From an uncultured Bacteroidia bacterium (GTDB taxonomy: Bacteria; Bacteroidota; Bacteroidia; Bacteroidales; CAJPTX01), in contig CALHSW010000074.1 in assembly GCA_938038735.1 (NCBI GenBank), forward strand, positions 16,302 through 80,301: a stretch of 64,000 bases of DNA, written 5' to 3'. Positions 3,444-52,247 of the stretch are shown here, piece after piece (the stretch's first letter is position 1; every line of letters begins with the position of its first letter). The notes beneath the pieces are model-generated. The model was given only the letters and a program-made list of their open reading frames with translations, was not told where the DNA came from and ran no database searches. The position numbers were made by a program, and so were the translations under genes.

Positions 3444-3953
3444 ATGGGAAGCCTAAAGGTTGGCGATGCTGCGCTATACGATTACCTTGATGCGCTGGGG
3501 GTGCGCTACGAGTACCACACGCATCCGGCGGCACCCACTGTGGAGATTGCCATGCAGTATTGGAAAGATATTCCGGGGGTGCATTGCAAGAACCTTTTTA
3601 TGCGAAACCACAAGGGCAATCACCACTTCTTGCTAATAGCACCCGGCGAGAAGAGTGTGGATATTCATGGCATGGAGCAGCGCGTGAGGGAGGGGAAACT
3701 GTCGTTTGCCTCGGCGCAGCGTATGCAGAAGTATTTAGGGGTGCAGCCTGGCTCTGTATCGCCCTTCGGGGTGCTGCACGATGCTGACCATGAGGTATAT
3801 CTCTTTCTAGATGAGGAGCTGAGCGGGGCGGAGAGGATAAGCTTTCACCCCAACGACAATAGGGCCTCCCTGGTGGTGAGCTGCGCCGATTTACTTCGCT
3901 TTTTGGATTCGTTGGGGAATAGGTACGAGTTTGTGGATTTGTCAAACCCCTAG
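3444..3953 (+). CDS. YbaK/ProX-type aminoacyl-tRNA deacylase domain protein
   Basis: YEYHTHPAAPTVEIAMQYW..IPGVHCKNLFMRNHKGNHHFLLIAP..SVSPFGVLHD resembles prolyl-tRNA-synthetase-associated editing domains. The start was moved to the ATG downstream of the -7 box. Confidence 0.65.
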   Translation: MGSLKVGDAALYDYLDALGVRYEYHTHPAAPTVEIAMQYWKDIPGVHCKNLFMRNHKGNHHFLLIAPGEKSVDIHGMEQRVREGKLSFASAQRMQKYLGVQPGSVSPFGVLHDADHEVYLFLDEELSGAERISFHPNDNRASLVVSCADLLRFLDSLGNRYEFVDLSNP

Positions 3954-3958
3954 TGCGT

Positions 3959-4990: not shown

Positions 4991-5037
4991 AAGGGGCTGT
5001 GGGAGCAGAGCGATTATATTGTAGGGGGAGATAGAAG

Positions 5038-6303: not shown

Positions 6304-6827
6304 TGTGTAAGCGTAAGATTGACAGATTACTGTGTAAAGTGTTAGTGCTGTGTTGCGTGCTGGTTTCTACAGGGTGCTCAATACGGTATTCGTTTACAGG
6401 CGCGAGCATCCCACCTAGCGCGAAGAGCGTGTCGGTGGCCCCGTTCCCCAATGTGGCGCCGCTGGTTAATGCCACGTTTGCCTCGGCCTTTGTGGAGGCG
6501 TTAAAGGATCGTTTCACTTCGCAAACGCGTCTATCAATACAGGATTATGGGGGCGACTTTGATTTTGAGGGGGAGATAACGGGGTACTCGGTGGCGCCCA
6601 CGGCGATTCAGGGGAATGAGACCGCCGCAATGAATAGGCTTACCGTGACGGTGCATGTGAAATTCACGAACAACCTGGACGAGAAGGCGAGCTACGATAA
6701 GAGTTTTTCCGCCTACGAGGATTTTTCATCGGCGCAACAGCTCACACAGGTGGAGGGGGAGCTTGCTCCCAGGTTGATAGAGAAGTTGGTGGATGACATT
6801 TTTAATGCGGCGGTGGCGAACTGGTAA
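6300..6827 (+). CDS. lptE: LptE-like LPS-assembly lipoprotein
   Basis: ATGA overlap with the activator gene. Lipoprotein signal with lipobox (LVSTGC), 175 aa, and the usual Bacteroidales position after the sigma-54 activator. Confidence 0.55.
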   Translation: MMCKRKIDRLLCKVLVLCCVLVSTGCSIRYSFTGASIPPSAKSVSVAPFPNVAPLVNATFASAFVEALKDRFTSQTRLSIQDYGGDFDFEGEITGYSVAPTAIQGNETAAMNRLTVTVHVKFTNNLDEKASYDKSFSAYEDFSSAQQLTQVEGELAPRLIEKLVDDIFNAAVANW

Positions 6828-6862
6828 TGCGGCATGGCGGTCGGCAGTGCCATAAAAATGAT

Positions 6863-6870
6863 TACCTTTG
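6863..6870 (+). promoter_or_regulatory. -7 promoter box TACCTTTG
   Basis: Exact TAnnTTTG match 32 nt upstream of the ATG at 6902. Confidence 0.55.
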
Positions 6871-6901
6871 CGAGGCTACTAAGGGAAACGAAGCATAGCT
6901 G

Positions 6902-8161
6902 ATGTTGACGCTAGATGGATTGGGGAAACTGTTGACGCAGAGCGACCATGGGACTCCTATGACGGAGTCGGAGGTGGAGGCACTGTGCGCTCAGTACCCC
7001 TATTTCCATGCGGCGCAGCTCTATAGAGCTGTGCTAGCTGAGCGGCAAGGGGAAGGGGGAGAAAAGACGAACAATGCGGTGCTGACCCCCGATAGGCTAG
7101 TTCTCTATTCGCTTGTGCATGGAGCACCGTGCGATTACGAGGCAGCAGAAGAGGGGCAGCTTGAGGAGGCGTGGGAAACGCAAACGAGTGCGGCAGAGTC
7201 GCTGGAGCTTGTTCAAGAGCAGGAGGGTGTAGAGGATGAGGTAGAGGAGCTTACCGTATGCGCCGAAAGGGATGAGACCAGTGAGAATGGGGAAGGCGGA
7301 GTGTCAGCATCGCAAGAGCAAACTGCTGTTGTGGAGGTGCAAGAGGAGGAGGCTCCGGTGCAGGAGACATTGGCAGGGGCTATAGAAAGGGAGCGAGAGG
7401 AAGGGAGCGTAGAGGCGGAGAAGGGAGAGATAGGAGCGTTTGGCGAAGCGGTTCCTGCTGTTGAGGAGGAGTCAGCGGTTGCGGCAAGCGATTTAGAGAC
7501 ACCGTTAGAGACGGAGGTTGCTGCGACAGAGAGTGTCTGCAACGATGAAGCGGCAGTTGAAGCACCAGGGGAGGCTGAAGGGGCAGCCGTGGAGGCGAGT
7601 GGAGAAAGTGAGGATATTTCGCAGGGGGAGAGCGGGACTAGCGATTCGGGCGAGGTGCCCACGTTGGATCTCCGCGGGGTGCTGGAGTTTTCGCTTTCGC
7701 AAGAGGTGCCAGGCATGGCGCCGAGCCTATCAACGTTTAGCGCAGCTGATTTCAATCTCACCCAAAAGGATATAGACTACATCAATACGCACCTCAATCC
7801 GCAGCGGGATGAAAGTGCGGAGGGGCAAGAAGATGGAGTTGCAATTGAGGAGGAGAGGCAGTCGCAGGCTCAACGTATAGATAGCTTTATAGAAAATTTT
7901 GATAGCATTCTATCGAAGGTCCTGCGAGAGGAGCGGGAAACTGCGGAACAAGGCGTGGAGCCTGAGGATCTGTCGGAGTCGCAGCAGCAGTTAGACTCGC
8001 ATATTGCAAGCGAGCGGTTGGCATTCCTGTTGGCTGAAAAGGGAGAGTATGGCGTGGCGATTCCGATGTATGAGAGGTTGCAAGCGCAAAATCCGGAAAA
8101 AAGTAGTTACTTCGCGGAGATTATAGCGCGCTTGAGACGGCGCGAAGAAGAGAATCAGTAA
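6902..8161 (+). CDS. Highly acidic Glu/Ala-rich protein with structured N- and C-terminal ends
   Basis: 419-aa ORF with a central ~250 aa of E/A/V/S low complexity. The termini are ordered (…QYPYFHAAQLYRAVLAE…, …ERLAFLLAEKGEYGVAIPMYERLQAQNPEKSSYFAEII…, TPR-like). Confidence 0.5.
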   Translation: MLTLDGLGKLLTQSDHGTPMTESEVEALCAQYPYFHAAQLYRAVLAERQGEGGEKTNNAVLTPDRLVLYSLVHGAPCDYEAAEEGQLEEAWETQTSAAESLELVQEQEGVEDEVEELTVCAERDETSENGEGGVSASQEQTAVVEVQEEEAPVQETLAGAIEREREEGSVEAEKGEIGAFGEAVPAVEEESAVAASDLETPLETEVAATESVCNDEAAVEAPGEAEGAAVEASGESEDISQGESGTSDSGEVPTLDLRGVLEFSLSQEVPGMAPSLSTFSAADFNLTQKDIDYINTHLNPQRDESAEGQEDGVAIEEERQSQAQRIDSFIENFDSILSKVLREERETAEQGVEPEDLSESQQQLDSHIASERLAFLLAEKGEYGVAIPMYERLQAQNPEKSSYFAEIIARLRRREEENQ

Positions 8162-8176
8162 TAGGGAGAAGAGGCG

Positions 8177-8545
8177 ATGTTGTACAATATTATCACAATA
8201 ATAATATTGCTGGTGTGCGTGCTACTGGTGCTGTTTGTACTAGTGCAGAATTCGAAGGGGGGCGGATTGGTTTCCTCACTAGGAGGTGCGAGCAATGTGG
8301 TAGGCGTGCGCGAGTCGGCGAACATTTTGGAGAAGGGAACGTGGACTTTGGCGGTGGTGCTGATGGTGTTGAGTTTCTTTGCGGTGGCGGCGCTGCCGCG
8401 GCAGGATCAGGGTCAAGGCGAGTCGCGTATACAGCAGCAGGTGCAGCGCACGGAGGCGGGCGCAGTGCCAGTGCAGCTGCCAGATGTGCCGGCTGACGAG
8501 GATGTCGCCAACCAGCCAGCCGCGACGCCAGAGCAGCCGGAGTAA
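8177..8545 (+). CDS. secG: Preprotein translocase subunit SecG
   Basis: MLYNIITIIILLVCVLLVLFVLVQNSKGGGL..LGG....G......LEKGTW is the SecG pattern, followed by a Pro/Gln-rich tail. Confidence 0.85.
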   Translation: MLYNIITIIILLVCVLLVLFVLVQNSKGGGLVSSLGGASNVVGVRESANILEKGTWTLAVVLMVLSFFAVAALPRQDQGQGESRIQQQVQRTEAGAVPVQLPDVPADEDVANQPAATPEQPE

Positions 8546-8796
8546 AGGAAGAATAGATTTTCCCCGCCATTTTGACTAGGGGGATGGAAGTGAGGGAGAA
8601 AGAGCTTTTATGGGTTCTTTCTCCCTTGTTGCGCTCCATAGCGATTTGTTTTGCTGCGTTTATGCATGCTTAAGGAGTGCAAGAGTTTCTTGCTAGATTA
8701 TAGAGGTCTCGGGCTTGTTGCTTGCTTAACATTTCTGCTCCGCAGTGGGGGTATGCCTATTTGCCCCTGCGAGGTGGGCAATGGTGATCCTATCGA

Positions 8797-10020
8797 CTAG
8801 TTCTTGGGAGAGTCAAGGGGACGGATGAGGCGGGCGGGGAACCAAGAAGCGATGAGGCCTAACGTTCCGGCGAGAAGAACAACAAAGAGTACGTCGAGCC
8901 ATCGCACCTCCACAGGGTAGGCATCAACCACGAAGCCAGCCCCCCCACCGAGCGCTATGAGGCCAAAGGTTGTTTGGGCCCAGCAGAGCAGCAACCCTAA
9001 CGCAACGCCAACAAGGGCCCCACCGAGCGAAATGATGGCACCTTCCCAAACAAAGATGCTCCGGATTTGCGTGCTTTGGGCGCCGAGACTTGCCAGCGTG
9101 GCAATGTCTTTCCGTTTGTCAATGATCAGCATGGAGAGGGAACCCACAACGTTAAATGTTGCAATGAAGAGGATTAGGCTGAGAATGACAATGATGATGA
9201 AGCGTTCGCTCTTCATTGTGCGGTAGAGATCTTTGTTCTGCTGTTGCCGGTTAACGACAGTATAATCCTGTTTGAGTGCGTCTTGGAGATTTTGTTGGAC
9301 AGCGCGGGGGGAGCAACCCTCCTTTAGCTGTAGCGAGAGCGAGGAGACGTAGTCGGGGGGGAGCGAGAGCATCTCCTGGACGGTTTCAATGGGTACAACC
9401 ACAGAGGCTTCGTCAAAGTCGGCGTTGACCGAGAGGATGGCCCCCAGCGTCATGGTTTTTTGTTTAAAGGCCGTGGCTGGGTTTAGCCAGTTGGAGGCGG
9501 TACGGTTTGGGAGATAGATAGTTATGGGGTCGTAGTGCGCTAGGGAGAGTCGTAGGTAGTAGGCAATTCCTGCGCCGATGTTGGCGATGGGCATGGAGCC
9601 GAGGTAGAGGTCGAACTGCCCGTCGGCCGTGAAGTTGGGTAGGTTGGTAGCTTTCAAGTAGTTTCTGTCAACGCCTATAAGCATGCCGATTTGCTGCTGC
9701 TTTTGATATCCGAAGAGGGCATCTTCCCGGAGGGATCGCCCCACGATGGCGATGTTGGGGTTCTGCTCGATGATTTGCCGAATGGAGTCGCTATAACGGA
9801 ATCCCTTTCCCTTGGTGGCCGTAATTGCGAGGTCAGTATCTAAGGAGGAGTACATGGAGCCTACGATGGACTCAATGCCGTTAAATACCGAAAGGACCAC
9901 CACGAGTGCCGCAGTGCTGATGGCCACGCCACACATCGCGATGATGGCTATGATGTTTACTGCGCTATGGGATTTGCGGGCGAAGATGTGGCGCTTTGCG
10001 ATAAACGAGCTGAAACGCAT
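8797..10020 (-). CDS. FtsX-like ABC transporter permease (LolC/LolE family)
   Basis: N-terminal RFSSFIAKRHIFARKSHSAVNIIAIIAMCGVAISTAALVVVLSVFNG, a large periplasmic loop, and 3 C-terminal TM helices (FtsX domain). Confidence 0.8.
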   Translation of the reverse strand: MRFSSFIAKRHIFARKSHSAVNIIAIIAMCGVAISTAALVVVLSVFNGIESIVGSMYSSLDTDLAITATKGKGFRYSDSIRQIIEQNPNIAIVGRSLREDALFGYQKQQQIGMLIGVDRNYLKATNLPNFTADGQFDLYLGSMPIANIGAGIAYYLRLSLAHYDPITIYLPNRTASNWLNPATAFKQKTMTLGAILSVNADFDEASVVVPIETVQEMLSLPPDYVSSLSLQLKEGCSPRAVQQNLQDALKQDYTVVNRQQQNKDLYRTMKSERFIIIVILSLILFIATFNVVGSLSMLIIDKRKDIATLASLGAQSTQIRSIFVWEGAIISLGGALVGVALGLLLCWAQTTFGLIALGGGAGFVVDAYPVEVRWLDVLFVVLLAGTLGLIASWFPARLIRPLDSPKN

Positions 10021-10031
10021 GGTGGGAGTCG

Positions 10032-10799
10032 CTATTTACGGCCGATGTAGAGGAGGTCTTCCCTACGCAATGCGTAGCGGAAGCGTTCGTGTTCGGAGAT
10101 CAGTGAGAAGTAGTCGAGGGTTTCCACGTTGAAACCGGCTTCGGCGAGTCGGCTGGTGTAGTCACGGCCGTAGAGGCGAAGGTGGTCGCGCTGATAGTAG
10201 AACTTTTCGCGCAGTTCGGGGGTGTTGATGCTCGGGTCTTCAAGGGTTCGCTCAAGGCTGAGATCCTGTGGGACGAGTAGTAGCGCCGTTCCGTTGGTAC
10301 GTAGAACGCGAAATAGCTCTCGCATGGCCTGTCGGTCGTCGGGGATGTGCTCAAGGACGTGGTTGCATAGGATGAGGTCAAAGGAGTTGTCGGGGAAGGG
10401 GAGTTTTTGGATGTCGCAGTGCACAGAGGCCCAGGGTGATTCAAGGTCGGCCGTGGTGTAATCAATGTTTGGTAGGCTTTGCAACGGACGGAGGAAACAC
10501 CATTCTGGGGCCATGTGGAGAACGGACATCGGAGTGGTTTCTATGGAGAGTTCCCGGGTGAGGTATAGCCAAATGAGGCGGTGCCGTTCGAGCGAGAGGC
10601 TGCGGGGTGCTAGCGCGTTGGGACGGCGTGTAATGCGTCCGTACGGGAGCAGTTTGCGGTAACGTTGCCCATCGATGGGATCTTCAAAGCGATTACCGCA
10701 GTAGAACCAGGCGACTCCTCGGCCCGCCGCGACGGCGAATCTGTGGAGGAGCGGGCGAGGAAGGTGTCGGGTGGCGAGCTGTATCAGTTGTCCGAGCAT
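10032..10799 (-). CDS. Class I SAM-dependent methyltransferase
   Basis: FDLILCNHVLEHIPDDRQAMRELFRVLRTNGTALLLVP is a Methyltransf_11-like motif. Confidence 0.7.
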   Translation of the reverse strand: MLGQLIQLATRHLPRPLLHRFAVAAGRGVAWFYCGNRFEDPIDGQRYRKLLPYGRITRRPNALAPRSLSLERHRLIWLYLTRELSIETTPMSVLHMAPEWCFLRPLQSLPNIDYTTADLESPWASVHCDIQKLPFPDNSFDLILCNHVLEHIPDDRQAMRELFRVLRTNGTALLLVPQDLSLERTLEDPSINTPELREKFYYQRDHLRLYGRDYTSRLAEAGFNVETLDYFSLISEHERFRYALRREDLLYIGRK

Positions 10800-11149
10800 T
10801 CGTTCTTAGGGCCAAGGAGTTGGTCAATGCGCTCGATGTAGTCAAGGGAGTCATCAAGGAAGAAGGTTAGCTCTGGCACTACTCGGAGCTGATGCCGAAT
10901 GCGTTTACCCAGCTGGAATCGGATTTCGCTTTTTTTGCTCTCTACATGCTTCATTACCTCTTCGCCCTTGCTAGAGGGAAAGACGCTGATTAGCACACGT
11001 GCGTATTCAAGATCAGGGGACATGCGTACGCGCGTCACGGTAACCATATGCCCTAGCGAGAGGACGGCGGCGTCGCGTTGGAACATCTCGCTGAGGTCTC
11101 GCTGTATTTGACGTGCAACTTTCTGTTGCCTTGTTGATTCGTGATCCAT
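10784..11149 (-). CDS. rbfA: Ribosome-binding factor A
   Basis: QKVARQIQRDLSEMFQ...VTVTRVRMSPDLEYARVLISVF..LRVVPELTFFLDDS is the RbfA pattern. Confidence 0.85.
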   Translation of the reverse strand: MDHESTRQQKVARQIQRDLSEMFQRDAAVLSLGHMVTVTRVRMSPDLEYARVLISVFPSSKGEEVMKHVESKKSEIRFQLGKRIRHQLRVVPELTFFLDDSLDYIERIDQLLGPKNECSDN

Positions 11150-11174
11150 TGTAAGATTAAGTGGAATAGGTATA

Positions 11175-11747
11175 CTACAGATTGATGACGATTTTGTTGA
11201 GGTCGGCTTTTGGGACGCAATGTACTTGCCCCTCGCGCCAGTAGTTTTCAGAACCGGAGGTAGCGGTTGAACGTAGCTCTACCTCTTCGGCCGGCTTCCC
11301 TAAGGCTAGCACGAGGCGCACCTTGAATTGAGTGGGGATTGCGAGAGCTTCGGAGAGAGCCTGGGCGTTGAAAGCGAGGATGTGACATCCACCCAGACCG
11401 ATGTAGCGCGCCCCTAGCAGAATGGTTTGGGAGACGATGCCGAGGTCAATGTCAGAGCCCTTTACGTGCTGCGTATCTTCCAGAAGCAAAACGTATGCAG
11501 TAGGTCTCTCTGAGATTGAAGGGCCGCCCCATTCGGGGAGCATGGCGGCCCATTTCAGTTCGGTGAATATGCGTTGGCAGCTCTCGGGGCGGTTCGTGAT
11601 GCCAAAGTGGATCCACTGCGCATTGCGTGCCCTTGGGGTCATGCGGCCCAGGTCGGCAAGCCATAGGAGTTCCACGTCGGTGACGGCTCTTGTAGGGTCA
11701 AAACGTCGGAAGGACCGCCCCCCGTAGACCAAGTCCTTAAAGTCCAT
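11175..11747 (-). CDS. Nitroreductase family protein
   Basis: MDFKDLVYGGRSFRRFD... is a typical nitroreductase N-terminus. The start is set at the second Met because the -7 box at 11766-11773 overlaps the longer ORF start. Confidence 0.75.
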   Translation of the reverse strand: MDFKDLVYGGRSFRRFDPTRAVTDVELLWLADLGRMTPRARNAQWIHFGITNRPESCQRIFTELKWAAMLPEWGGPSISERPTAYVLLLEDTQHVKGSDIDLGIVSQTILLGARYIGLGGCHILAFNAQALSEALAIPTQFKVRLVLALGKPAEEVELRSTATSGSENYWREGQVHCVPKADLNKIVINL

Positions 11748-11765
11748 GCGATTAAGTTTTGTTGC

Positions 11766-11773
11766 CAAAGGTA
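11766..11773 (-). promoter_or_regulatory. -7 promoter box TACCTTTG (minus strand)
   Basis: The reverse complement of CAAAGGTA is TACCTTTG, ending 18 nt upstream of the ATG at 11747. Confidence 0.55.
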
Positions 11774-11957
11774 GGTATTTCTACCGAGAAAATGGTTTTT
11801 CTCGTCTCCATCGTGCGTATAAAGTTGAAGGATTGTTCGTTGCACCTAAGCCATTTATTCGCAGCTAAGAGCTGCGTACGGGGGCAGGATAGTGGTAAAA
11901 GGCTACCGAAGAGGGGGTGAGTTTAGGCGGCACGACAGGCGTTTAATTAAAAATGCG

Positions 11958-11965
11958 TACATTTG
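11958..11965 (+). promoter_or_regulatory. -7 promoter box TACATTTG
   Basis: Exact TAnnTTTG match 16 nt upstream of the ATG at 11981. Confidence 0.55.
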
Positions 11966-11980
11966 CAGGGTGCAATCGCA

Positions 11981-14107
11981 ATGAAACGTCATTATATGGA
12001 CAGAAGGAACATCATTGTAGTGGCTATTATGGCAAGTTTGGTACTGTCGGGGTGCGCTGAGAGCTGGGATTACCCTGAGGCGAGGCGGGACTCAACGGTA
12101 GATGAGTATTTTGGGGTACGCGTAGCGGACCCTTACCGTTGGATGGAGAACGAGCAAGACCCCGCATTGGCACAGTGGATTAAGGAAGAGAATGCGTTTA
12201 CCGAAAAATACCTGTCGAAGCTAACGAGCCGCGAGCCTTTGCGCAAGCGCCTTGGGGAGCTATTGAATTACGACTCACAAGGAATCTATACCTACACGGG
12301 GAAGTACTATCTGTTTTTCCGGAAAGAGGGTTTGCGCAATCAGAGCGTTCTGTACGTAAAAGATTCGTTGGCCGGAGAGGCGAGGATGCTGTTGGATCCT
12401 AATACCCTATCAGATGACGGTACCGTGGCACTGTCGGAGATTTCGCCATCGCACGACTCAAAGTATCTAGCGTATTCAGTGGCAGATGGAGGAAGCGATT
12501 GGAACAAGATATACGTGTTGGACATGCGCACGGGCGAGCGTCTAAGCGATGAGATTTCGTGGGTAAAGTTCACAACGATTGCATGGCAGGGTGATGGCTT
12601 TTACTATAGTGCCTACGATGCGCCAGCCGAGGGGAAAGCGTTGAGCGGTAAGAACGAGTTCCACAAGGTGTACTACCACAAGGTCGGAACGCCGCAAAAG
12701 GAGGACCGGTTGATATTCCAAAACAGGCAAGAACCCTTGCGGAACTACTTCGCACAGGTGACTGATGACGAGAAGTATCTCTTGGTGAACGAGACGGCGA
12801 GTACTGATGGTAATTCCGTGTATGTGAAGAATTTGCGTACAAATTCTGAGTTCATGCAGCTCACGGTGGGTTTTGACTACTCGTACTCTTTGGTGGGGAG
12901 TCAGGGGGATAATCTATACATGATGACGAACTACAAGGCTCCGAAGGGCAAGTTGGTTTGCATTAACATGGATCGGTCTGATGTAGGCGACTGGGCAGAC
13001 GTGATCGAGGAGCAGAAGGATGTTCTCACCAGCGTTACGATGACGGCTGGGCATTTCGTGGCGGTGCATATGGTTGATGCCGTGAGTCGGATGGAGGTGT
13101 ACACGATAGGCGGAGAGAGAGTGCGGGAGATAGAGCAGCCCGTGATGGGGACGGTAGATGCCGTGAGCGGACGAGCCGAGGGTGACGAGTTGTTTTACTC
13201 GTTCTCGTCGTTTACAGTGCCTTCGGTGGTGTATCGGGTTGTGCCGAGTACGGGGGAGCAGGCGGAAGTTTTCCGTCCAGCAATAGATTTCCCATTTGAT
13301 GACTACGTTGTGGAGCAAGTGTTTTATCCGAGCGTGAATAGCCAGATGGTACCGATGTTTATCGTTCATCGTAAGGATGTCAAGTATGATGGGAGCAATC
13401 CAACGCTCCTGTATGGTTATGGAGGTTTCAATATCAGTCTTACGCCGGGTTTTAGCGCATTTAGGTTGGCGTGGTTGGACCAAGGAGGCGTTTACGCCCA
13501 GGCGTGTCTTAGGGGGGGCGGAGAGTATGGGGAAAAGTGGCACATGGCGGGAACAAAGCTGAATAAGCAAAACGTGTTTGATGATTTTATTGCCGCAGGG
13601 GAATATCTTATCCATGCAGGGTACACGTCAACGGCGAAGTTAGCCATACAGGGAGGCTCGAATGGTGGGCTGCTCGTAGGTGCGGTAGTAAACCAGAGAC
13701 CGGATTTGTTTGCGGCGGCGATACCGCAGGTTGGGGTGATGGATATGCTTCGTTACCAGCATTTCACGATAGGCTGGGCGTGGGGTGACGATTACGGGAC
13801 GTCAGATAATGAGTTGCATTTTAAAAACTTGAATTCTTACTCTCCGTTGCACAACATCAAGAGGGGAGAAGGTTATCCCGCGATCCTGGCCACAACGGCG
13901 GATCATGATGACCGTGTAGTGCCTGCGCATACCTTTAAGTATATTGCAGAAATGCAGTACATGCAGGCAAAGGGAGCACCGAAGCTTGTGCGTATTGAGA
14001 CAAGAGCAGGGCATGGGGCGGGGAAACCGGTTGCGCTTAGAATTGAAGAGCAAGCTGACATCTATGCGTTTTTGTTCGACAATCTGAAGGTACGTGTGGA
14101 GAAATAA
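11981..14107 (+). CDS. Prolyl oligopeptidase (S9A family), lipoprotein-type signal
   Basis: N-terminal VLSGC lipobox, YRWMEN motif, catalytic GGSNGGLLVG serine motif, and C-terminal DHDDRV...GHG. Confidence 0.9.
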   Translation: MKRHYMDRRNIIVVAIMASLVLSGCAESWDYPEARRDSTVDEYFGVRVADPYRWMENEQDPALAQWIKEENAFTEKYLSKLTSREPLRKRLGELLNYDSQGIYTYTGKYYLFFRKEGLRNQSVLYVKDSLAGEARMLLDPNTLSDDGTVALSEISPSHDSKYLAYSVADGGSDWNKIYVLDMRTGERLSDEISWVKFTTIAWQGDGFYYSAYDAPAEGKALSGKNEFHKVYYHKVGTPQKEDRLIFQNRQEPLRNYFAQVTDDEKYLLVNETASTDGNSVYVKNLRTNSEFMQLTVGFDYSYSLVGSQGDNLYMMTNYKAPKGKLVCINMDRSDVGDWADVIEEQKDVLTSVTMTAGHFVAVHMVDAVSRMEVYTIGGERVREIEQPVMGTVDAVSGRAEGDELFYSFSSFTVPSVVYRVVPSTGEQAEVFRPAIDFPFDDYVVEQVFYPSVNSQMVPMFIVHRKDVKYDGSNPTLLYGYGGFNISLTPGFSAFRLAWLDQGGVYAQACLRGGGEYGEKWHMAGTKLNKQNVFDDFIAAGEYLIHAGYTSTAKLAIQGGSNGGLLVGAVVNQRPDLFAAAIPQVGVMDMLRYQHFTIGWAWGDDYGTSDNELHFKNLNSYSPLHNIKRGEGYPAILATTADHDDRVVPAHTFKYIAEMQYMQAKGAPKLVRIETRAGHGAGKPVALRIEEQADIYAFLFDNLKVRVEK

Positions 14108-39824: not shown

Positions 39825-40074
39825 TGGCGCCCCATTGTATGCGCAAATTCAACGTTGGAATTAACGCGGAAGGGCTGCAGAGCGGTGAAAATCTATGCAG
39901 GATGGGGGCATCGCATGCAGATTGCGTTGGGAGCTTGGTTACCATAGCTGCTGCAAAATAATGCGCAAGGCCATGCCGCGGCAGGTTGCGAAATGTGGGA
40001 GGCGGTCATCTGCAGTTGCCCGCGCCATCGGAAACGCAGATATTGAAAAGGGTGCGGCGCAGCCGCTGCGCCTT

Positions 40075-40163
40075 CCGTCCGTAGGACGGTCTTTGAATAG
40101 CCGGGGGTTTTCAAGCCCCCGGTACTCTGCCCACAGGGCAAAAGCAGTCTGAAAGACTGACCC
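40075..40163 (+). repeat. Four-hairpin repeat element, copy C4
   Basis: Near-identical to C3, 339 nt downstream. Confidence 0.85.
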
Positions 40164-40456
40164 TGGCGACCCATTATAAGCGCAAATTCGATGTGAGAAT
40201 TAACACGCAAGGGCTGCGCGGGTAAGCCAGATTGAGAGACCGTCCTACGGACGGGGCTGCACTGCGGCGAAAATTTATGCGGGCGGGAGGGATGCATGCA
40301 GGTTACGGCGTGAGCTTGGTTGCCTATGGCTGCTGCGAAACAATGCGCAAGACCGTACCGCTGCATGTTGCGAAATGTGGGAGGCGGTCATCTGCAGTTG
40401 CCCGTGCCATTGAAAGCGCAGATATTGAAAAGGGTGCGGCGCAGCCGCTGCGCTTT

Positions 40457-40545
40457 CCGTCCGCAGGACGGTCTTTGAATAGCCGGGGGTTTTCAAACCC
40501 CCGGTACTCTGCCCGCAGGGCAAAAGCAGTCTGAAAGACTGACCC
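40457..40545 (+). repeat. Four-hairpin repeat element, copy C6
   Basis: Near-identical to C3 and C4, 382 nt downstream of C4. Confidence 0.85.
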
Positions 40546-40694
40546 TGGCGACCTATTCCACACGAAAATTCAATGTGGGATTTCACATGGGCGGGCTGCG
40601 AGGGTAAGCCCGATTGAGAGACCGAGACTGCGGATATGGCTGCAGTATGGCGTGAGATCGCCCCCGGGGGACGCCCTAGAGTAAGGGGAGAGGG

Positions 40695-42555: not shown

Positions 42556-42765
42556 CAACGTGAGGAAGGGTTGCAGGGTGCGACGGAACGGCATGGGCTG
42601 GAGCTCGGCGATTGGGAATGGCGTGTAAAGGACTCCAACCCGAATGATTTTTCCTTTAGTTTTTCGGCAGATGTGGCGGGGAGTTCGGTTGAGGCGGAGT
42701 ACAGCACCCGCACCGCTAGCACTGAAGACTGGACGCTCATAGAGGAGGAGCGGCAGCGTAGCAGC
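42556..42765 (+). pseudogene. Internal fragment of a TonB-dependent receptor gene (copy of 47666-47966 with two deletions)
   Basis: The fragment translates to EEGLQGATERHGLELGDWEWRVKDSNPNDFSFSFSADVAGSSVEAEYSTRTASTEDWTLIEEERQRSS, versus DEGLE..GAQGATERHGLELGDREWRVKDSNPNDFFFSFSADVAAPLPHAFQLDAGLAADVAGSSVEAEYSTRTASAEDWTPIEEERQRSS in the full gene. Confidence 0.85.
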
Positions 42766-43002
42766 ATAGGTGCACAATTTCGCGGATGCATGCGCGAGGC
42801 TAAGCGCAAACGGAAATCGCCAAAACATAGGGCGGGACAAATCGGTCATCAGCCGAAAGTTTAAGCGTACAGTCCATCCATCCCCAAGAACAGCCATTTC
42901 CCCGACTTTACCGAAGAGCAGATTGAACGAATACAGGATAAGCGCAACGCAGGGCTGCGAAAAAAAAACTCGGGTACAAAACGCCCAACGAAGCATTTTG
43001 TT

Positions 43003-43010
43003 TACCTTTG
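43003..43010 (+). promoter_or_regulatory. -7 promoter box TACCTTTG (distal candidate for the RiPP-like cassette)
   Basis: Exact TAnnTTTG match 117 nt upstream of the ATG at 43127. Confidence 0.4.
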
Positions 43011-43088
43011 CAGCCGCAGTTGTATTTGCGGGTGAAATTTTCCTTTCAAAGGTCTCAGTAGAGGATTTGCGAATTGAAAAATAAGTGC

Positions 43089-43096
43089 TACATTTG
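43089..43096 (+). promoter_or_regulatory. -7 promoter box TACATTTG (proximal candidate for the RiPP-like cassette)
   Basis: Exact TAnnTTTG match 31 nt upstream of the ATG at 43127. Confidence 0.5.
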
Positions 43097-43126
43097 CGTA
43101 GAGGTTAACTTTAAAATTTTGTTACT

Positions 43127-43309
43127 ATGGATGATTTGTTGTCTTTCAGCGTGGTAGATTTGAGCGACTTGACTGAGGGTATGTCATGTGAGATGTACGA
43201 TGGATGTCAGAATAACCATGGGCGTTGCGGGCAAGGGTGCGGTTGTGGTGGATCTAAAGGGGAGTGCGGCGGATGGATTGACCCAAAAAGTCAAATAGGT
43301 TCCCACTAG
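43127..43309 (+). CDS. Candidate RiPP precursor peptide (60 aa, six Cys, Gly-rich core)
   Basis: MDDLLSFSVVDLSDLTEGMSCEMYDGCQNNHGRCGQGCGCGGSKGECGGWIDPKSQIGSH. It has an acidic, Cys-free N-terminal 17 aa and a Cys/Gly-rich core. ATG start 31 nt after a -7 box, stop 21 nt before the rSAM gene. Confidence 0.65.
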   Translation: MDDLLSFSVVDLSDLTEGMSCEMYDGCQNNHGRCGQGCGCGGSKGECGGWIDPKSQIGSH

Positions 43310-43330
43310 CATTAAGCAGCGAGATTGGAA

Positions 43331-44752
43331 ATGGAGAGTGCTACGTTTCTACATGTGAAGCAGCTCCATTTGATTTGGGGCGTAGGAGATGGCGGAGCCG
43401 TGGCCTACGCCCCAACGAATGGTTGCATCGTTGAGTTGCAAAAGGGTTTAGCGGAAGCAGTTAGGCTATATCAACAGGAAGGGTGTTTTCATCACGAAGG
43501 CATGAGTTCAGACGATGTGCGTGAAGCGTTGGAAAAATTAGAGGCGCAGCTTTGCTTTGCTTCGCAGAGAATGGAAGAGACGGGGCATTGCGATGCTGGT
43601 AAGTCGGTTCTGAACCGTGTTACGTTGCACGTTTCAAACGATTGCAATCTGAATTGCTCGTACTGCTATGCGCTGGGGGGAGACTATGGTCACGAAAGAG
43701 GATTGATGACGAGGCAAACAGCAGTTGATGTCGTTGATTTCCTTTGTCAACAGTTTGATCGGGTTGAGCATGTAGTCTTTTTCGGTGGAGAGCCAATGCT
43801 GAATACACCGGTTATAGAAACGGTATGTGCACAGTTCAAAGAGGCGTACGATCGGGGGCAAATAGAGGCAATTCCTAAATTTGGGATTATAACAAATGGC
43901 ACGATTTTAAACGACAAGGTTGTTTGTTTGATAAGAGACCACATCGATTTTATTACAGTTAGTTTAGATGGACCGAAAGAGATTCACGATTTCAATAGAA
44001 GGAAAAGGGATGGTCAGGGAAGTTATGACGATGTGAATCGTTTTATTCGGCGAATTCAATCTGAAACAGATGTGAAGGTGCGCTTTGAGGGAACGGTCAG
44101 CAAAGAGCATCGGCGAAGGCGGATTAGTGGGCGAGATTTGTATGACTTTGCATATTCCACTTACGGCATTTACGGTTCTGTAGCAACGGATATTCTTGCT
44201 GATGATCGGAGGCATGTGATTCAGGAGGATTCAGAGGATTGGCATACTGAACGTACCATTCTCGGCATACCAGAAAGCCAATTTTACGACACGGGGGTTG
44301 ATCAGCTTCTTCCAGGGCTTGTGCATAATGTGTACCGCGAGATGTGTCCGGTGGGAGAAAACATTGTGTCGATTGACATTCATGGAGACCTGTATGCGTG
44401 TCACATTACTGTAGGTACCAAGAGGTTAAGTTTGGGTTCAATATATGGGGACAATATTTTTACTAGTAGGAATAGGTACGAAGAGCGTTTCCCCTTTTTA
44501 CGTGTGGTCAGAAAGAATCATCAGAAATGTCAGAAATGTTGGATGCGTCGCTTATGTGGAGGCTGTGCCATCCGATGGTTTTTTGATATCTCTGAAATGA
44601 ATTTTCTCGGAGAGCCTAAGCAGGGAATGTGCGAGGCGCAGGGGGAGGAGTTTGAGAAGATTATTGCTGAGCTAGTGAAGGCAAAAAAGGATCCACAAGC
44701 ATGGGATGCTTTGAAAACGTTGCTTCAGACGGTGGGACAGTTGGAGTGCTAG
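43331..44752 (+). CDS. Radical SAM/SPASM-domain peptide-maturase-like enzyme with a ~100-aa N-terminal extension
   Basis: CNLNCSYC (CxxxCxxC) about 100 aa from the N-terminus, FFGGEPML, a C-terminal MCPVGENIVSIDIHGDLYAC (C-x12-G-x4-C) and CQKCWMRRLCGGC auxiliary-cluster cysteines. Confidence 0.85.
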   Translation: MESATFLHVKQLHLIWGVGDGGAVAYAPTNGCIVELQKGLAEAVRLYQQEGCFHHEGMSSDDVREALEKLEAQLCFASQRMEETGHCDAGKSVLNRVTLHVSNDCNLNCSYCYALGGDYGHERGLMTRQTAVDVVDFLCQQFDRVEHVVFFGGEPMLNTPVIETVCAQFKEAYDRGQIEAIPKFGIITNGTILNDKVVCLIRDHIDFITVSLDGPKEIHDFNRRKRDGQGSYDDVNRFIRRIQSETDVKVRFEGTVSKEHRRRRISGRDLYDFAYSTYGIYGSVATDILADDRRHVIQEDSEDWHTERTILGIPESQFYDTGVDQLLPGLVHNVYREMCPVGENIVSIDIHGDLYACHITVGTKRLSLGSIYGDNIFTSRNRYEERFPFLRVVRKNHQKCQKCWMRRLCGGCAIRWFFDISEMNFLGEPKQGMCEAQGEEFEKIIAELVKAKKDPQAWDALKTLLQTVGQLEC

Positions 44753-44756
44753 TTAA

Positions 44757-46490
44757 ATGGTGTCATTAGGGAGACTTCATCGTAGCGTACGGGGGATTCG
44801 TCCCTACCTTTTGCCGTATAGTGGAGAGTGTTTTGTGGGGGTTTTAGGGATGTTGATGAGTGTATTCTTATTGCTGCCCGTGCCGCTTCTTACGAAACAC
44901 CTCGTAGATGATGTTATTCCATTGGGAGACGTGAGCGGGGTGGTCACGATTTGTTTGCTAAGTGGAGCGATTTTGATTGCTTCGAGCATTAGCGGATATT
45001 TTCAGAAATATTATCTTGGGAAGTTTGAACTGGATGTGTTCAAAGACATTCAGCTGTCGTTAGTCCGAAAATTGCGCAGTGTGGATCCTGCGTATAGACA
45101 TACTCAGCAGACGGGATACCTTCTATCACGGGTTACAGATGACACAGGGCGGTTACGATCCCTGTTCACGGATGTCTTAGCGAATTTAGTTAAAGATGTT
45201 CTAATTTTAGTGGTGGGAATCATTCTGCTGTACTATTTGGATTGGCGTTTAGCTTCTATTGCACTTATAACGTTACCATTTTTTATTGCGACTTGGTATT
45301 ATTTCAATTCAAAGATACGGTTGGCAGCCGTTAGATGGTACGAACAGAGTGCACAGTACACAAAAAAGCTTGAGGAGACGATTGGTCTTCTTGATACCGT
45401 AGTTGCGCTTCACGCTTCCGCATTTGACATGAACAAGCTGTGTAAACAGCAGGGGAAGGTGGTAGAGGCAGGAGTTAAAAAGAATGGTGTCGAAGGCATT
45501 GCGAGGGTAGTCATTTCAATAATCGGCGGGCTGTCACCGATTCTTATCATAGGGTTTGGATCTCATTTTATTTTTCAAGGAACGTTTTCATTGGGCGGAC
45601 TAATCGCATTTAATACGCTTACGGGATATGTTTTTGGTCCTTCGTCGCGTATGGTAAATTCTTTGCTCAGTATGCAACAAGGGGTGGCGGCGTGGGAAAG
45701 GGTTGAGGAAATTTTACGCCTTCCGGAGTGCATAAGGATGTCTGATGCAAAGAGTGAGCATTTGGTTGGCTATGAAGGAGCAATTTCCATCGAGTTGCGA
45801 AATGTTACAGTTCGATATGGAGTCAGAGATGCCATAAACGATGTGTCTATTACGGTACCGGATGGCTCTTTCGTGGCTCTTGTGGGAGAAAGTGGAAGTG
45901 GGAAAAGTACTATTATGAGAACTGTTTTGGGGATTCAGGCAGCAACAGCTGGATCTGTTCTGTTTAATGGGTTGCCCATGCATAGAGGAGAGCAGTTATC
46001 TACATTTCGCATTGCGGTATTATCGCAAGAACCGAATTTATTCGCAACTACGATACGCGAGAATATTCTCTTGGGTTTGGACGATTACGACGTAATGGTA
46101 CAGGCAGCTAGAGATGCGCAAATTGCAAGTTTTATTGGTACGTTGCCGAGAGGATACGACACTAGGATTGATGAGAGGGGAATTAATCTTTCTGTAGGGC
46201 AAAAACAGCGCATTGCGTTGGCGAGATGCTTAGTGATGAATCCGAATCTTTTGTTGTTAGATGAGCCAACTTCGAATCTTGACATTGAGTCGGAACGTCA
46301 GTTGTGGGATGCACTTCGTCCTATAATGCGTAAGCGTACCACGATTATGGCAGCGCATCGTCTCCATACTATTAGTGAAGCTGATTGTATATACGTTCTT
46401 TCGAAAGGTAGCGTAGTAGAGCAAGGTACACACTCCGCATTACTCAAATTATGCGGTCAGTATAGTCGGCTTTGGAATATGTACAGGTAA
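44757..46490 (+). CDS. ABC exporter, fused TMD-NBD half transporter (no C39 peptidase domain)
   Basis: Six predicted N-terminal TM helices. Walker A GESGSGKST, signature LSVGQKQRIALARC, Walker B LLLLDEPTSNLD, H-loop AAHRL. Start 4 nt after the rSAM stop. Confidence 0.9.
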   Translation: MVSLGRLHRSVRGIRPYLLPYSGECFVGVLGMLMSVFLLLPVPLLTKHLVDDVIPLGDVSGVVTICLLSGAILIASSISGYFQKYYLGKFELDVFKDIQLSLVRKLRSVDPAYRHTQQTGYLLSRVTDDTGRLRSLFTDVLANLVKDVLILVVGIILLYYLDWRLASIALITLPFFIATWYYFNSKIRLAAVRWYEQSAQYTKKLEETIGLLDTVVALHASAFDMNKLCKQQGKVVEAGVKKNGVEGIARVVISIIGGLSPILIIGFGSHFIFQGTFSLGGLIAFNTLTGYVFGPSSRMVNSLLSMQQGVAAWERVEEILRLPECIRMSDAKSEHLVGYEGAISIELRNVTVRYGVRDAINDVSITVPDGSFVALVGESGSGKSTIMRTVLGIQAATAGSVLFNGLPMHRGEQLSTFRIAVLSQEPNLFATTIRENILLGLDDYDVMVQAARDAQIASFIGTLPRGYDTRIDERGINLSVGQKQRIALARCLVMNPNLLLLDEPTSNLDIESERQLWDALRPIMRKRTTIMAAHRLHTISEADCIYVLSKGSVVEQGTHSALLKLCGQYSRLWNMYR

Positions 46491-46511
46491 CCTAAAACCT
46501 ACGTAAATATT

Positions 46512-48935
46512 ATGTGCAACACATCTAGAGGAAGACACGGGGCGTGGGTGGTGCTTTTAGCGGCACTGCTGCTGTGCGCTCTGCCTATGGGCGCAGCGGC
46601 GCAGCGCAAAGAGAAGAAGGAGCAGGGGCGCGGACACGAGCTGGTGGGGCGTGCCGTGGACTCTACATCAAGGCAGGGGGTTGCCTATGCAACGGTGCAG
46701 CTGGTTACGCCAGAAGGCGAGGTTTTCAGCGGTGCTATCTGCGACTCTGAGGGAAACTTTAAGCTGGTCAAGGTGCCGAGCAAAGCGTTGTCCATCAAGG
46801 TTCAAGCACTTGGTTATAAGCCTAAAACGCTACATCTCGATTTAGAAAGTACAAAAAACAATGATTTTGCGATAGGCGACGTACCGCTTACCATTGACCA
46901 GCTCGCCATTGAGCAGGTGACCGTGAAGGGGGATGCCCCATTCCTGATGCTAAAGCCTAACCGCAAGGTGGTAACGCCGCAGATGGAGGATCTGGCAGCG
47001 GGCGCCGTGATGACCGATTTGCTCAAGCGGATTCCGGATTTTGAGGTGACCTCTCCAATGGACATCACGCTGCGGGGTGCAGCGTTCCGGGTGCTTATTA
47101 ATGGGAAGCCGTCGGGGCTTTCCACTACACAGCTCAACACAATAAATTTGGCCGAGGTGGCCTCCATTGAAATTATCACCACGCCTTCCGTGCGCTATAG
47201 GGCGAGCGATGTGGGCGGGGTGGTGAATATCAAACTAAAACGCTACCAGGTGGGGTTTAACTCCGTGCTGCAAGCTGCGGGCGGTTCGGATAACTGCTAC
47301 AGCCTATCGGCATCGGCCAACGTGGGGCTAAAAAAGGTTAACTTCTTCGGGGCGTTGTTCGGGGGATACGAGGGGGCAAGAAATGCGTTCACCTATAGTT
47401 CTACCGATGCGCATGGCGAGCCCTTGGAGCGTTACCAGCTCAACGACCGAATGAATAATTTACGATTACGGCCTAAGGTTGGCATCGATTACCTCCCCAC
47501 GCAAAAAGACGTGCTGTCAATTTTTTGGGCAATGGACTACTATAACGACAAGTATACGCGGCGCGCGGAGCGAACGTACAAAGCGCAGGCAATCCAGCAT
47601 GGCGGCGGGCTATCGCGAGAGCGGATGATGTCGAATGAGGCTAATGCGCTGTACACGCACACCTTCAACGACGAAGGGCTGGAGCTGTCCGTATCGGCCA
47701 TCGGGACGCTTGACGGTGCGCAGGGCGCGACGGAACGGCATGGGCTGGAGCTCGGCGATCGGGAATGGCGTGTAAAGGACTCCAACCCGAATGATTTTTT
47801 CTTTAGCTTCTCGGCAGATGTGGCGGCGCCACTTCCGCATGCCTTCCAGCTGGATGCAGGGCTTGCGGCGGATGTGGCGGGAAGTTCGGTTGAGGCGGAG
47901 TACAGCACCCGCACCGCTAGTGCTGAAGACTGGACACCCATAGAGGAGGAGCGGCAGCGTAGCAGCTCCCTAACGCAGGTGTATGGTGCCTATGGTGACC
48001 TTTCCTGGGAGGCGAGCGACAAGGTGACTCTAAACGCAGGCGTACGCTACGAGCATTACCGTATGCGCAGCAACGATGAGCGGCAAAGCAACCCGTACGG
48101 CCGTCATGCCAATGATGCTTTCTTTAGCGGGGGCGTGGCGTATACCCCCATCAAAGCACTACATTTTTCTTTGAGCTATAGCGGGAGGGTGGATCGGCCC
48201 GGGGCATCAATGCTCACATCGGCAAAACGCATGGCAGATTTTTACAATGAGTTTTCTATTGGCAACCAGAGGTTGATGTCGGCCTACTCGCATGGGGTGG
48301 AGCTCAGCATGGCGCAGCGGATGGAGAGTTGTTCGTTCTACGAGGATGCAAAGTGGACGTATATAGCGAACCCTATAGAGTCGTACTCGAGCAAACTAAC
48401 CGATTCTACGTGGCTAAAGAGCTACGTAAATCTAAAGCAGGAACGAAACCTATACGTTGGCGTGGGGGGAAATTGGGATGCCGCATCGTGGTGCAGCGTG
48501 TGGTTTAATGCGAGGGGGCAGGGGGTGAAGAGTCAAGACAAAGGGGGCGATTGGCTGGTTAATGATGAGTGGAGTTTTGGCGTGCGGATGGGCGCGGACT
48601 TCCCCATCAATAGCATGTGGGCACTCACCGCATGGGGTGGCTACAGCAGCGCGAGGCGCAACGCGTACCGTCACTACAAGGCGCAGCCCGCATTGAATGC
48701 GGGTGTGTACTTCTACCCGCTTAGGAATAGGAGTTTCGTCCTCGTTCTGCAGGGCATAAACCTTTTGACTACCGGTATGAACTACACGACGCATTCGGAT
48801 GGGGTGACGGCGAATTGGGATTTTGATTGGCAAACCCGGGCGGTATACCTGAACGTGTATTGGCGTTTCGGCGGTGCGTACCGTTCCAAGACCGGCGAGC
48901 GGTTCAATTCGGATATTAACGCGGTTGGGAGGTAG
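46512..48935 (+). CDS. TonB-dependent receptor-like outer-membrane beta-barrel protein with an N-terminal carboxypeptidase-regulatory-like domain
   Basis: Signal peptide ...LPMGAAA|Q, CarbopepD_reg-like GRAVDSTSRQGVAYATVQLV..EG..FSGAICDSEGNFKL, a plug-like region (VTVKGDAPF..), then a long beta-barrel region. Confidence 0.8.
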   Translation: MCNTSRGRHGAWVVLLAALLLCALPMGAAAQRKEKKEQGRGHELVGRAVDSTSRQGVAYATVQLVTPEGEVFSGAICDSEGNFKLVKVPSKALSIKVQALGYKPKTLHLDLESTKNNDFAIGDVPLTIDQLAIEQVTVKGDAPFLMLKPNRKVVTPQMEDLAAGAVMTDLLKRIPDFEVTSPMDITLRGAAFRVLINGKPSGLSTTQLNTINLAEVASIEIITTPSVRYRASDVGGVVNIKLKRYQVGFNSVLQAAGGSDNCYSLSASANVGLKKVNFFGALFGGYEGARNAFTYSSTDAHGEPLERYQLNDRMNNLRLRPKVGIDYLPTQKDVLSIFWAMDYYNDKYTRRAERTYKAQAIQHGGGLSRERMMSNEANALYTHTFNDEGLELSVSAIGTLDGAQGATERHGLELGDREWRVKDSNPNDFFFSFSADVAAPLPHAFQLDAGLAADVAGSSVEAEYSTRTASAEDWTPIEEERQRSSSLTQVYGAYGDLSWEASDKVTLNAGVRYEHYRMRSNDERQSNPYGRHANDAFFSGGVAYTPIKALHFSLSYSGRVDRPGASMLTSAKRMADFYNEFSIGNQRLMSAYSHGVELSMAQRMESCSFYEDAKWTYIANPIESYSSKLTDSTWLKSYVNLKQERNLYVGVGGNWDAASWCSVWFNARGQGVKSQDKGGDWLVNDEWSFGVRMGADFPINSMWALTAWGGYSSARRNAYRHYKAQPALNAGVYFYPLRNRSFVLVLQGINLLTTGMNYTTHSDGVTANWDFDWQTRAVYLNVYWRFGGAYRSKTGERFNSDINAVGR

Positions 48936-52015: not shown

Positions 52016-52089
52016 GGCCTCGTAGCTTAACTGAATAGAGCATCTGACTTCGGATCAGAAGGTTGTGGGTTTGAATCCCGCCGGGGTCA
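52016..52089 (+). tRNA. tRNA-Arg (anticodon TCG)
   Basis: Hand-folded cloverleaf with acceptor GGCCTCG/CGGGGTC, anticodon stem TCTGA/TCAGA, loop CT-TCG-GA and T-arm GTGGG-TTTGAAT-CCCGC. 74 nt, no encoded CCA. Confidence 0.85.
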
Positions 52090-52173: not shown

Positions 52174-52247
52174 GGCTCCGTAGCTTAACTGAATAGAGCA
52201 TCTGACTACGGATCAGAAGGTTGTGGGTTTGAATCCCGCCGGAGTCA
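52174..52247 (+). tRNA. tRNA-Arg (anticodon ACG)
   Basis: Same body as the upstream tRNA, with acceptor GGCTCCG/CGGAGTC (compensatory change) and anticodon loop CT-ACG-GA. 74 nt. Confidence 0.85.

Follow-up and report, generated by a model that had tools for sequence, protein, structure and literature searches.

Ribosomally synthesized and posttranslationally modified peptides (RiPPs) that are matured by radical S-adenosylmethionine (rSAM) enzymes with a SPASM domain are known from several described systems. In those of the SCIFF peptides (CteB and ScfB), a short Cys-rich precursor is encoded directly upstream of the rSAM/SPASM gene, and CteB, like QhpD and Tte1186, has a SPASM domain with seven Cys (PMC10352776). 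PapB, which acts on the repeated short Cys modules of PapA (freyrasin), is reported to join Cys to Asp. The streptococcal NxxcB makes a beta-thioether within Asn-x-x-Cys and tolerates other acceptors (PMC9389541), and StsB installs three Cys-Gly sactionines in a core of the form CxCxCx4GxGxG (PMC10288494). For the Bacteroidales, Seyedsayamdost and co-workers reported an uncharacterized cluster of Parabacteroides distasonis, which codes for a 61-mer precursor, an enzyme of the radical SAM (RaS) type, a TonB-dependent receptor, and a peptidase-containing ATP-binding cassette (ABC) transporter (PMC9389541). Here, we analyzed a stretch of 64,000 nucleotides from an uncultured Bacteroidia bacterium of the Bacteroidales (contig CALHSW010000074.1, positions 16,302 to 80,301; hereafter the window, numbered from its first letter), in which a 60-codon open reading frame (ORF) opens a same-strand set of genes coding for a peptide, an rSAM/SPASM enzyme, an ABC exporter, and an outer membrane barrel protein (Table 1).

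Its conservation across divergent loci marks this ORF as a genuine precursor of a RiPP. The peptide family of which it is a member is one of Bacteroidota and has no description in any curated database. The reading that we prefer, with a probability of about 0.6, is that it codes for the precursor of an rSAM-modified RiPP, with a leader that would be bound by the enzyme, a core that would be closed into thioether rings, export by the ABC transporter, and a step at the outer membrane barrel. RiPPs of the rSAM/SPASM type being known, what is new here is the precursor family together with its phylum-specific transport pair.

The ORF starts with ATG and translates to MDDLLSFSVVDLSDLTEGMSCEMYDGCQNNHGRCGQGCGCGGSKGECGGWIDPKSQIGSH, followed by a stop codon. 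A first-pass annotation, made from the letters of this DNA, had singled it out as a precursor candidate with a leader/core layout, and translation and direct counting reproduced the features it listed: Cys at positions 21, 27, 34, 38, 40, and 47, two His (31 and 60), 12 Gly within residues 18 to 58, a CGQGCGCGG run, and an acidic, Cys-free N terminus of 17 amino acids (aa), with five acidic and no basic residues.

A word-index search with the window peptide alone found nothing beyond one twin of 97% identity, and a search for related loci in genome contigs seeded with the rSAM enzyme found none. The family emerged from the DNA around rSAM homologs, where small ORFs have a matching layout (for example, MHNQLDFNLIDLTSLLKLTSDLQAFDGCGDKKGQCGYGCGCENRNGQCGGWVKEN and MENLLSFEIVDLSELTEISVSALEHDGCGISSGHCSTGCGCGRRNGWCGAADETIN), and a profile built from six family peptides retrieved further members from an index of 5.8 billion proteins. 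When 1.84 billion representative proteins were searched exhaustively with HMMER, 64 clusters reached an E value of <=1e-3, and 26 of them <=1e-10. As a specificity control, the six-peptide profile was tested on the small ORFs of the window and of about 210 fetched loci (17,193 ORFs in total). Among these loci were 80 SCIFF-type rSAM loci (taken from a metagenome scan with the rSAM alignment, which used generic motifs such as FFGGEP and gave mostly SCIFF-type loci, at 26 to 31% identity) and 80 mostly random Cys/Gly pattern matches. All ORFs scoring between 1e-15 and 1e-28 adjoin close rSAM homologs; below them came cousins with a double-glycine (GG) leader at 2e-6, and then noise from 2.5e-3. 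When genome contigs were scanned with a degenerate DNA pattern for the core, only one of the matches listed was real (L077, a Bacteroidales metagenome-assembled genome), the other listed ones being GC-rich chance matches in Streptomyces and others. The taxonomic range of the family is sparsely sampled, with L077 and P0125 as the Bacteroidales metagenome-assembled genomes among the relatives. These two relatives, together with the BspA-type leucine-rich repeat and CarboxypepD_reg-type proteins encoded in the window, also point to Bacteroidota as its source.

None of the Pfam and NCBIfam models matched the family peptides (NCBIfam at E <= 10), and no paper found in the literature searchable here describes the family; the clusters in a survey of Bacteroidales RiPPs are other ones (PMC10352776). 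Most of the precursors escape automatic gene callers or are called by them in a wrong frame. In near-identical contigs they called an ORF of 32 aa (36 aa in L003) that overlaps the precursor in another frame, and the correct 60-aa frame was called in one short contig only (P0001). Because the callers pick another frame, the family is sparsely present in protein databases and probably under-counted.

Both halves of the peptide are conserved. An alignment of 10 distinct members has four invariant leader columns (F7, D11, L12, and L15), with a consensus of LLSFxVVDLS[D/E]L across divergent loci, and 10 invariant core columns (G26, C27, G32, C34, C38, G39, C40, G45, C47, and G48), so that the bipartite precursor has a core with five Cys and five Gly that never vary. 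The proposed leader/core layout and the conservation of the N-terminal segment were thus borne out, and at these loci the two parts always stand beside an rSAM/SPASM enzyme. The six-Cys pattern stood only in part, as Cys27, Cys34, Cys38, Cys40, and Cys47 are family-invariant and Cys21 was seen again only in P0202, of the closest subclade. The window core can be described as two C-x4-G-x-C modules (C27 to C34 and C40 to C47) flanking the central Cys38. At least one such module is present in all 69 sequences examined and two to four in nearly all, giving 146 modules in total. Position +4 is Asn in 94 of these 146 (His31 and Lys44 in the window peptide) and position +1 is mostly Gly, while the Gly at +5 was fixed by the search pattern.

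The sequence after the last conserved Cys is less uniform. The motif CGGW (residues 47 to 50; 43265-43276) was seen only in the subclade of the window peptide (P0123, P0124, P0195, and P0202), and members outside it have CG plus a variable tail or end directly after CG (P0130 and P0131). The Trp of this motif might take part in a further cross-link or serve in recognition.

That the ORF is not translated, and that its conservation comes from a nucleotide-level element or from chance, seems extremely improbable to us. Such a view could draw on the callers' choice of a 32- or 36-aa ORF in another frame (L001, L002, L003, and L217) and on the lack of an evident Shine-Dalgarno sequence. Between divergent members, however, the proportion of synonymous differences is 0.5 to 1.0 (saturated) and that of nonsynonymous differences 0.34 to 0.53, and the columns in which Cys, Gly, Phe, Asp, or Leu never varies are written with mixed synonymous codons (TGT/TGC, GGA/GGT/GGC/GGG). 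Indels are multiples of three and keep the frame, frames of 46 to 108 aa remain open in the 64 clusters, and no Rfam family matches the locus. As synonymous sites are saturated and invariant residues are kept with differing codons, selection acts on the protein, and the codon-level comparison effectively refutes conservation at the nucleotide level alone.

The adjacent enzyme matches the Pfam models PF04055 and PF13353 and, weakly, SPASM (19.4 versus a cut-off of 21.5). It contains the cluster-binding motif C107-x3-C111-x2-C114, and its C-terminal Cys (C341-x12-G-x4-C359, C402-x2-C405-x5-C411-x2-C414, and C436) have SPASM-like spacing and are invariant in 13 homologs; many homologs were found at 33 to 47% identity. 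The best NCBIfam scores, in bits with cut-offs in parentheses, were those of PapB (189.1 [340]; E value of 1e-55), nif11-rSAM (175 [519]), and the SCIFF maturase (146.8 [425]), with QhpD (137), GggB (124), and CcpM (118) also below their cut-offs. Among proteins of solved structure, CteB (5WGG) is the best match in sequence (E value of 1e-35). An AlphaFold2 model of the enzyme (predicted local distance difference test [pLDDT] of 81.7; predicted template modeling score of 0.80) gave CteB as the best fold in Foldseek (E value of 4e-22, template modeling score of 0.60 to 0.68, about 464 to 478 aligned columns), followed by ChlB, anSME, and TigE. In this model, residues 15 to 84 form an N-terminal domain of three strands and two helices (pLDDT of about 72 to 87) that is a candidate RiPP recognition element (RRE). 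By these comparisons, the enzyme falls among maturases that form thioethers (CteB, PapB, QhpD, and GggB), with CteB and PapB as the nearest, and by analogy with them we infer that it cross-links Cys through thioethers.

The resemblance to SCIFF systems includes the position of a short Cys-rich precursor directly upstream of the rSAM/SPASM gene and, for CteB, a nearly full-length match that covers the N-terminal, putatively peptide-binding domain, as well as seven Cys with SPASM-like spacing. The parallel that had been drawn from the six-Cys count is a fair one with qualifications: the best solved relative of the enzyme is the SCIFF maturase, but the peptide matches no SCIFF model. We consider it very unlikely that the window codes for an ordinary SCIFF or PapA-type ranthipeptide of an already curated family, even if the peptide itself has six Cys, CteB is the best solved homolog, and PapB is the top NCBIfam match. 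The peptide did not match TIGR03973 (six Cys in 45 residues) or any other NCBIfam or Pfam model, even at an E value of <=10; the enzyme lies far under the cut-offs of TIGR03974 and of the PapB-type NF047865, both given above; and genuine SCIFF peptides score at noise level against the family profile (E value of about 7). The window family has five conserved Cys in C-x4-G-x-C modules, no Thr acceptor, and neither the CX3D motif nor the GGCGECQTSC-type motif of SCIFF, and its context in Bacteroidota is phylum specific, as an ABC exporter is encoded there together with an outer membrane protein of the TonB-receptor-like kind.

PapA and the window family share repeated short Cys modules, and the family's position +4, usually Asn, falls at the place of the PapA Asp, PapB being also the best-scoring curated enzyme model. 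Here, however, the acceptor position is variable and not Asp or Glu, and each module also has another Cys as well as a Gly that never varies. StsA is similar in that the conserved core residues are only Cys and Gly, and it gives a precedent for the Gly C-alpha as acceptor (PMC10288494), but its Cys and Gly are in separate blocks, whereas those of the window family are interleaved, and the similarity to StsB is weak (58.5 bits versus 625). Most family members have N-G-x-C, an NxxC arrangement as in NxxcA, although leader and gene context are different and the window peptide carries HGRC and KGEC at these places. The enzyme matches examined included no NxxcB model. The enzyme is also under the cut-off of the rSAM type associated with GG peptides of Bacteroidales (TIGR04148/TIGR04149; 71.1 versus 300), for which the peptide gave no precursor match and lacks the GG.

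SPASM enzymes cover many reaction types, and the enzyme could catalyze a different one (for example, epimerization, a C-C cross-link, or conversion of Cys to formylglycine or another oxidation), with the Cys serving for disulfides or for auxiliary-cluster binding. Its scores below all equivalog cut-offs, the presence of anSME and ChlB as the next-best fold matches, and the aromatic partner offered by CGGW would be in keeping with this. We nevertheless think it unlikely, as the seven best NCBIfam matches (E values of <=5e-34) are maturases of Cys thioethers or Cys-rich peptides, or close relatives of these, ahead of the non-thioether types, and as the invariant core is made of Cys and Gly only, the Trp being limited to one subclade.

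The family falls into two groups. In the window group (n = 33), the two modules are joined through a central Cys (C-x6-C-x3-C-x-C-x6-C), and in 32 of the 33 a pattern check found no GG following the leader; the exception, P0215, combines a window-type core with an IKGG leader (read by eye, as it is not scorable by pattern). The cousin group has leaders ending in DLSE[VI]KGG or ELENxxGG and two to four modules with Gly/Ser spacers between them. The weak GG likeness that had been noticed in DLSDLTEG|M of the window peptide coincides, in a comparison made by eye, with the cousins' GG (DLSELKGG in L008/L009, DLSQIKGG in P0132, and DLSEVKGG in P0210), with T16-E17-G18 at the position of their K-G-G. 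In its sequence, the window leader thus resembles a GG-type leader minus the GG cleavage site.

The transporters follow the same division. A C39-peptidase ABC transporter adjoins the GG-type cousins at the two loci that could be checked (L009 and L216; L220 has no ABC gene nearby), whereas the ABC transporters of all eight distinct non-GG loci have no C39 domain. That of the window has no PF03412 match and starts at the transmembrane domain, its alignment to PCAT1 beginning at residue 180 of the latter. A truncated peptidase-containing transporter was considered and ruled out, since the window protein is 43% identical to the ABC transporter of a family locus (L212) and 27% identical to the C39-ABC transporter of a GG-type locus (L216), which makes it a separate transporter lineage. 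No protease gene was found near the window precursor, and none is conserved in the family neighborhoods. The absence of C39 and of a neighboring leader peptidase, both read from the window at first pass, was confirmed, and because C39 goes with GG leaders and is missing at the non-GG loci, the suggestion that the transporter does not remove the leader is supported at the level of the family. The P. distasonis cluster, which we compared by description, has the same architecture of precursor, rSAM, TonB-receptor-like, and ABC genes and resembles the GG cousins L009 and L216, but the window family lacks GG and C39 and has a different ABC lineage.

At a GG-type locus (L008 and L009, positions 1 to 13392 of each), the cassette is tandemly repeated two to three times, with genes for a 64-aa precursor (MNTLKSLEVEELDLSELKGGTTEAISIRGCGVCNGNCSGDNSGCGVCNGKCHETPQLPAEPTVE), the rSAM enzyme, an outer membrane protein of 777 aa, and a 162-aa protein; in L009, the C39-ABC transporter follows the tandem cassettes.

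The four genes of the window are separated by gaps of 21, 4, and 21 nucleotides, and their linkage is conserved: 12 distinct loci from divergent genomes contain a family peptide, a homologous rSAM enzyme (35 to 47% identical), and an outer membrane protein of the same kind. The peptide is immediately beside the rSAM gene in the inspected loci, L006 excepted (about 5 kb apart), and the outer membrane protein adjoins the rSAM gene in all of them (L001 to L012, L212 to L216, L219, and L220). Every peptide context that was fetched has an rSAM homolog and a CarboxypepD_reg/OMP_b-brl_3 protein, and usually an ABC transporter. A second small ORF in L219 (47 aa) was considered and is not a precursor. 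In L006 (654-9127), a DUF6249 protein, an ECF sigma factor, two unannotated/DUF4097 proteins, and the outer membrane protein are encoded between the upstream precursor and the rSAM gene, and a YcaO gene fragment lies downstream; the ECF sigma factor next to the TonB-receptor-like protein hints at surface signaling.

TonB-dependent transporters re-import siderophore and methanobactin metal complexes, and the locus might accordingly be read as a metallophore-like system, in which a metal would be chelated by the five Cys that never vary, be they free or modified in part, the ABC transporter would export the peptide, and the barrel would take the complex back. A core whose invariant residues are only Cys and Gly would suit this, as would the obligatory link to a Plug-containing TonB-receptor-like protein, even where no ABC gene is near (L220), and the genes for an ECF sigma factor and a putative anti-sigma factor beside the outer membrane protein of L006, a typical signaling pair of TonB receptors. 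TonB-dependent transporters are, moreover, canonical importers (PMC6434023). On the other hand, the nearest characterized relatives of the enzyme use up Cys thiols in thioethers, and metal-related genes were not found in the loci. We know of no metallophore made by an rSAM enzyme. The L006 arrangement is not conserved, since the regulators differ from locus to locus (ECF sigma factor in L006, LytTR in L010/L011, GerE in L220, and TPR in L213 to L215). We therefore regard a metallophore as quite improbable. For outward transport through such a barrel, a precedent is Oar of Myxococcus, a TonB-receptor-type protein required for the export of PopC (PMC6434023). What Oar exports is a protease rather than a small peptide, and we liken the two barrels by their architecture. 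Oar carries a CarboxypepD_reg-type N-terminal domain.

The pathway that we favor for an rSAM-modified RiPP would run as follows. The enzyme would bind the acidic leader, with its LLSFxVVDLS[D/E]L consensus, through its RRE-like domain at the N terminus, and the thiols of the core Cys would then be joined to carbons of nearby residues, giving small rings inside the two C-x4-G-x-C modules. The acceptor may be the residue at -3/+4 (usually Asn; here His31 and Lys44), as in beta-thioethers of the NxxC or CX3D type, or alternatively the C-alpha of the invariant Gly, as in StsA-type sactionines; the equal numbers of invariant Cys and Gly (five of each) fit the Cys-Gly option of the StsB type. The peptidase-less ABC exporter would pump the modified peptide across the inner membrane, and the TonB-receptor-like barrel would handle it at the outer membrane, export being the more probable direction and re-uptake or sensing possible ones. 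As the leader is of the GG type but has no GG site, it would be either retained or cut off by an unlinked protease. We presume that the product is bioactive.

Several observations weigh against this pathway. The enzyme is under every curated family cut-off, so that its reaction type is extrapolated, and no PqqD/RRE model of Pfam matched it, the RRE call coming from the predicted fold only. The window peptide lacks Asn, the commonest residue at the putative acceptor position. Since nothing but Cys and Gly is invariant in the core, an alpha-thioether and a beta- or gamma-thioether are not distinguishable, and the same invariance would be compatible with another rSAM reaction or with a metal-binding role; the outer membrane protein could possibly serve import or sensing. 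Finally, a site matching TTTG-N19-TAnnTTTG, which we take to be the Bacteroides promoter consensus, has its -7 box end 31 nucleotides 5' of the ATG. Two matches were found in the window against 0.45 expected (at least two in 7 of 100 shuffles), and the site, present in the 97%-identical relative L001, was not found upstream of other family members, so it counts as weak, suggestive evidence.

A bolder interpretation, which we hold only tentatively and consider doubtful, is that the C-x4-G-x-C module defines a new class of RiPPs, so far seen only in Bacteroidota, with an as yet undescribed cross-link pattern and a dedicated barrel. In such a class, the CteB/PapB-like enzyme might close rings in pairs, for instance from Cys to Gly or from Cys to position +4. 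If true, the barrel would be an outer membrane peptide exporter that acts without a membrane fusion protein, or else a re-uptake receptor for the peptide or its metal complex, and the route would be a phylum-specific one for RiPP trafficking.

Bacteroidota dominate the gut and oral microbiomes, and to our knowledge their RiPPs are barely characterized. The locus is a compact four-gene system with a defined precursor family (64 representative clusters) built on a simple repeated module, and it offers a new pair of substrate and enzyme for thioether or other radical peptide chemistry. It also provides a natural contrast between GG and non-GG leaders beside transporters with and without a peptidase, and a tractable case for the role of TonB-receptor-like proteins, which are frequent in Bacteroidales RiPP clusters.

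Table 1. Features of the precursor locus, in window positions unless a contig is named
Feature	Position	Strand	Basis
Promoter-like site of Bacteroidetes type, TTTG-N19-TAcaTTTG	43066..43096	+	Consensus match; distance to the ATG in the text
Precursor peptide gene	43127..43309	+	ORF and translation; family matches; protein-level selection
Conserved leader segment, residues 4-18 (LLSFSVVDLSDLTEG)	43136..43180	+	Alignments
Conserved core, residues 26-48, G-C-x4-G-x-C-x3-C-G-C-x4-G-x-C-G	43202..43270	+	Alignment of 10 distinct peptides
Mis-framed 32-aa call	43200-43298; L001 3096-3194; L002 2840-2938; L217 1444-1542	+ (window)	Gene calls in near-identical contigs
Radical-SAM/SPASM peptide maturase	43331..44752	+	473 aa from ATG; open frame from TTG at 43325
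ABCB-type half-transporter (transmembrane plus nucleotide-binding domain)	44757..46490	+	ABC_membrane at residues 27-295, ABC_tran at 361-506; no PF03412
TonB-dependent-receptor-like outer membrane protein	46512..48935	+	Signal peptide, CarboxypepD_reg, Plug, and OMP_b-brl_3/TonB_dep_Rec barrel; 807 aa

The set is flanked upstream by a gene for a BspA-type leucine-rich repeat (LRR) protein on the opposite strand and downstream by HtpG. Its GC content is not uniform, being 44 to 46% over the precursor, rSAM, and ABC genes (43000-46500) against 53 to 57% on both sides, and about 55% in the outer membrane protein gene. This suggests that the three genes of lower GC content came in, or were replaced, independently of the outer membrane protein gene. 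In addition, an internal fragment of the outer membrane protein gene (47720-47966) is duplicated as 193 nucleotides in the intergenic region upstream of the precursor (42573-42765). The two copies are direct repeats, 93 to 95% identical, with the upstream one lacking a 54-nucleotide stretch bounded by short GATGTGGCGG repeats, and they enclose the first three genes of the set together with 1.2 kb at the 5' end of the outer membrane protein gene. The duplication is also present in the related strains L001, L002, L003, and L217 and may be what is left of a former gene copy at the upstream site or of cassette recombination.

Elsewhere in the window, two direct repeats of 243 nucleotides (40000-40242 and 40382-40624), 90% identical and spaced 382 nucleotides apart, were found shortly downstream of the gene for the BspA-type LRR protein and overlap minus-strand ORFs without Pfam matches. 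Two tRNA genes on the plus strand (52016-52089 and 52174-52247) are the sole Rfam matches in the window.

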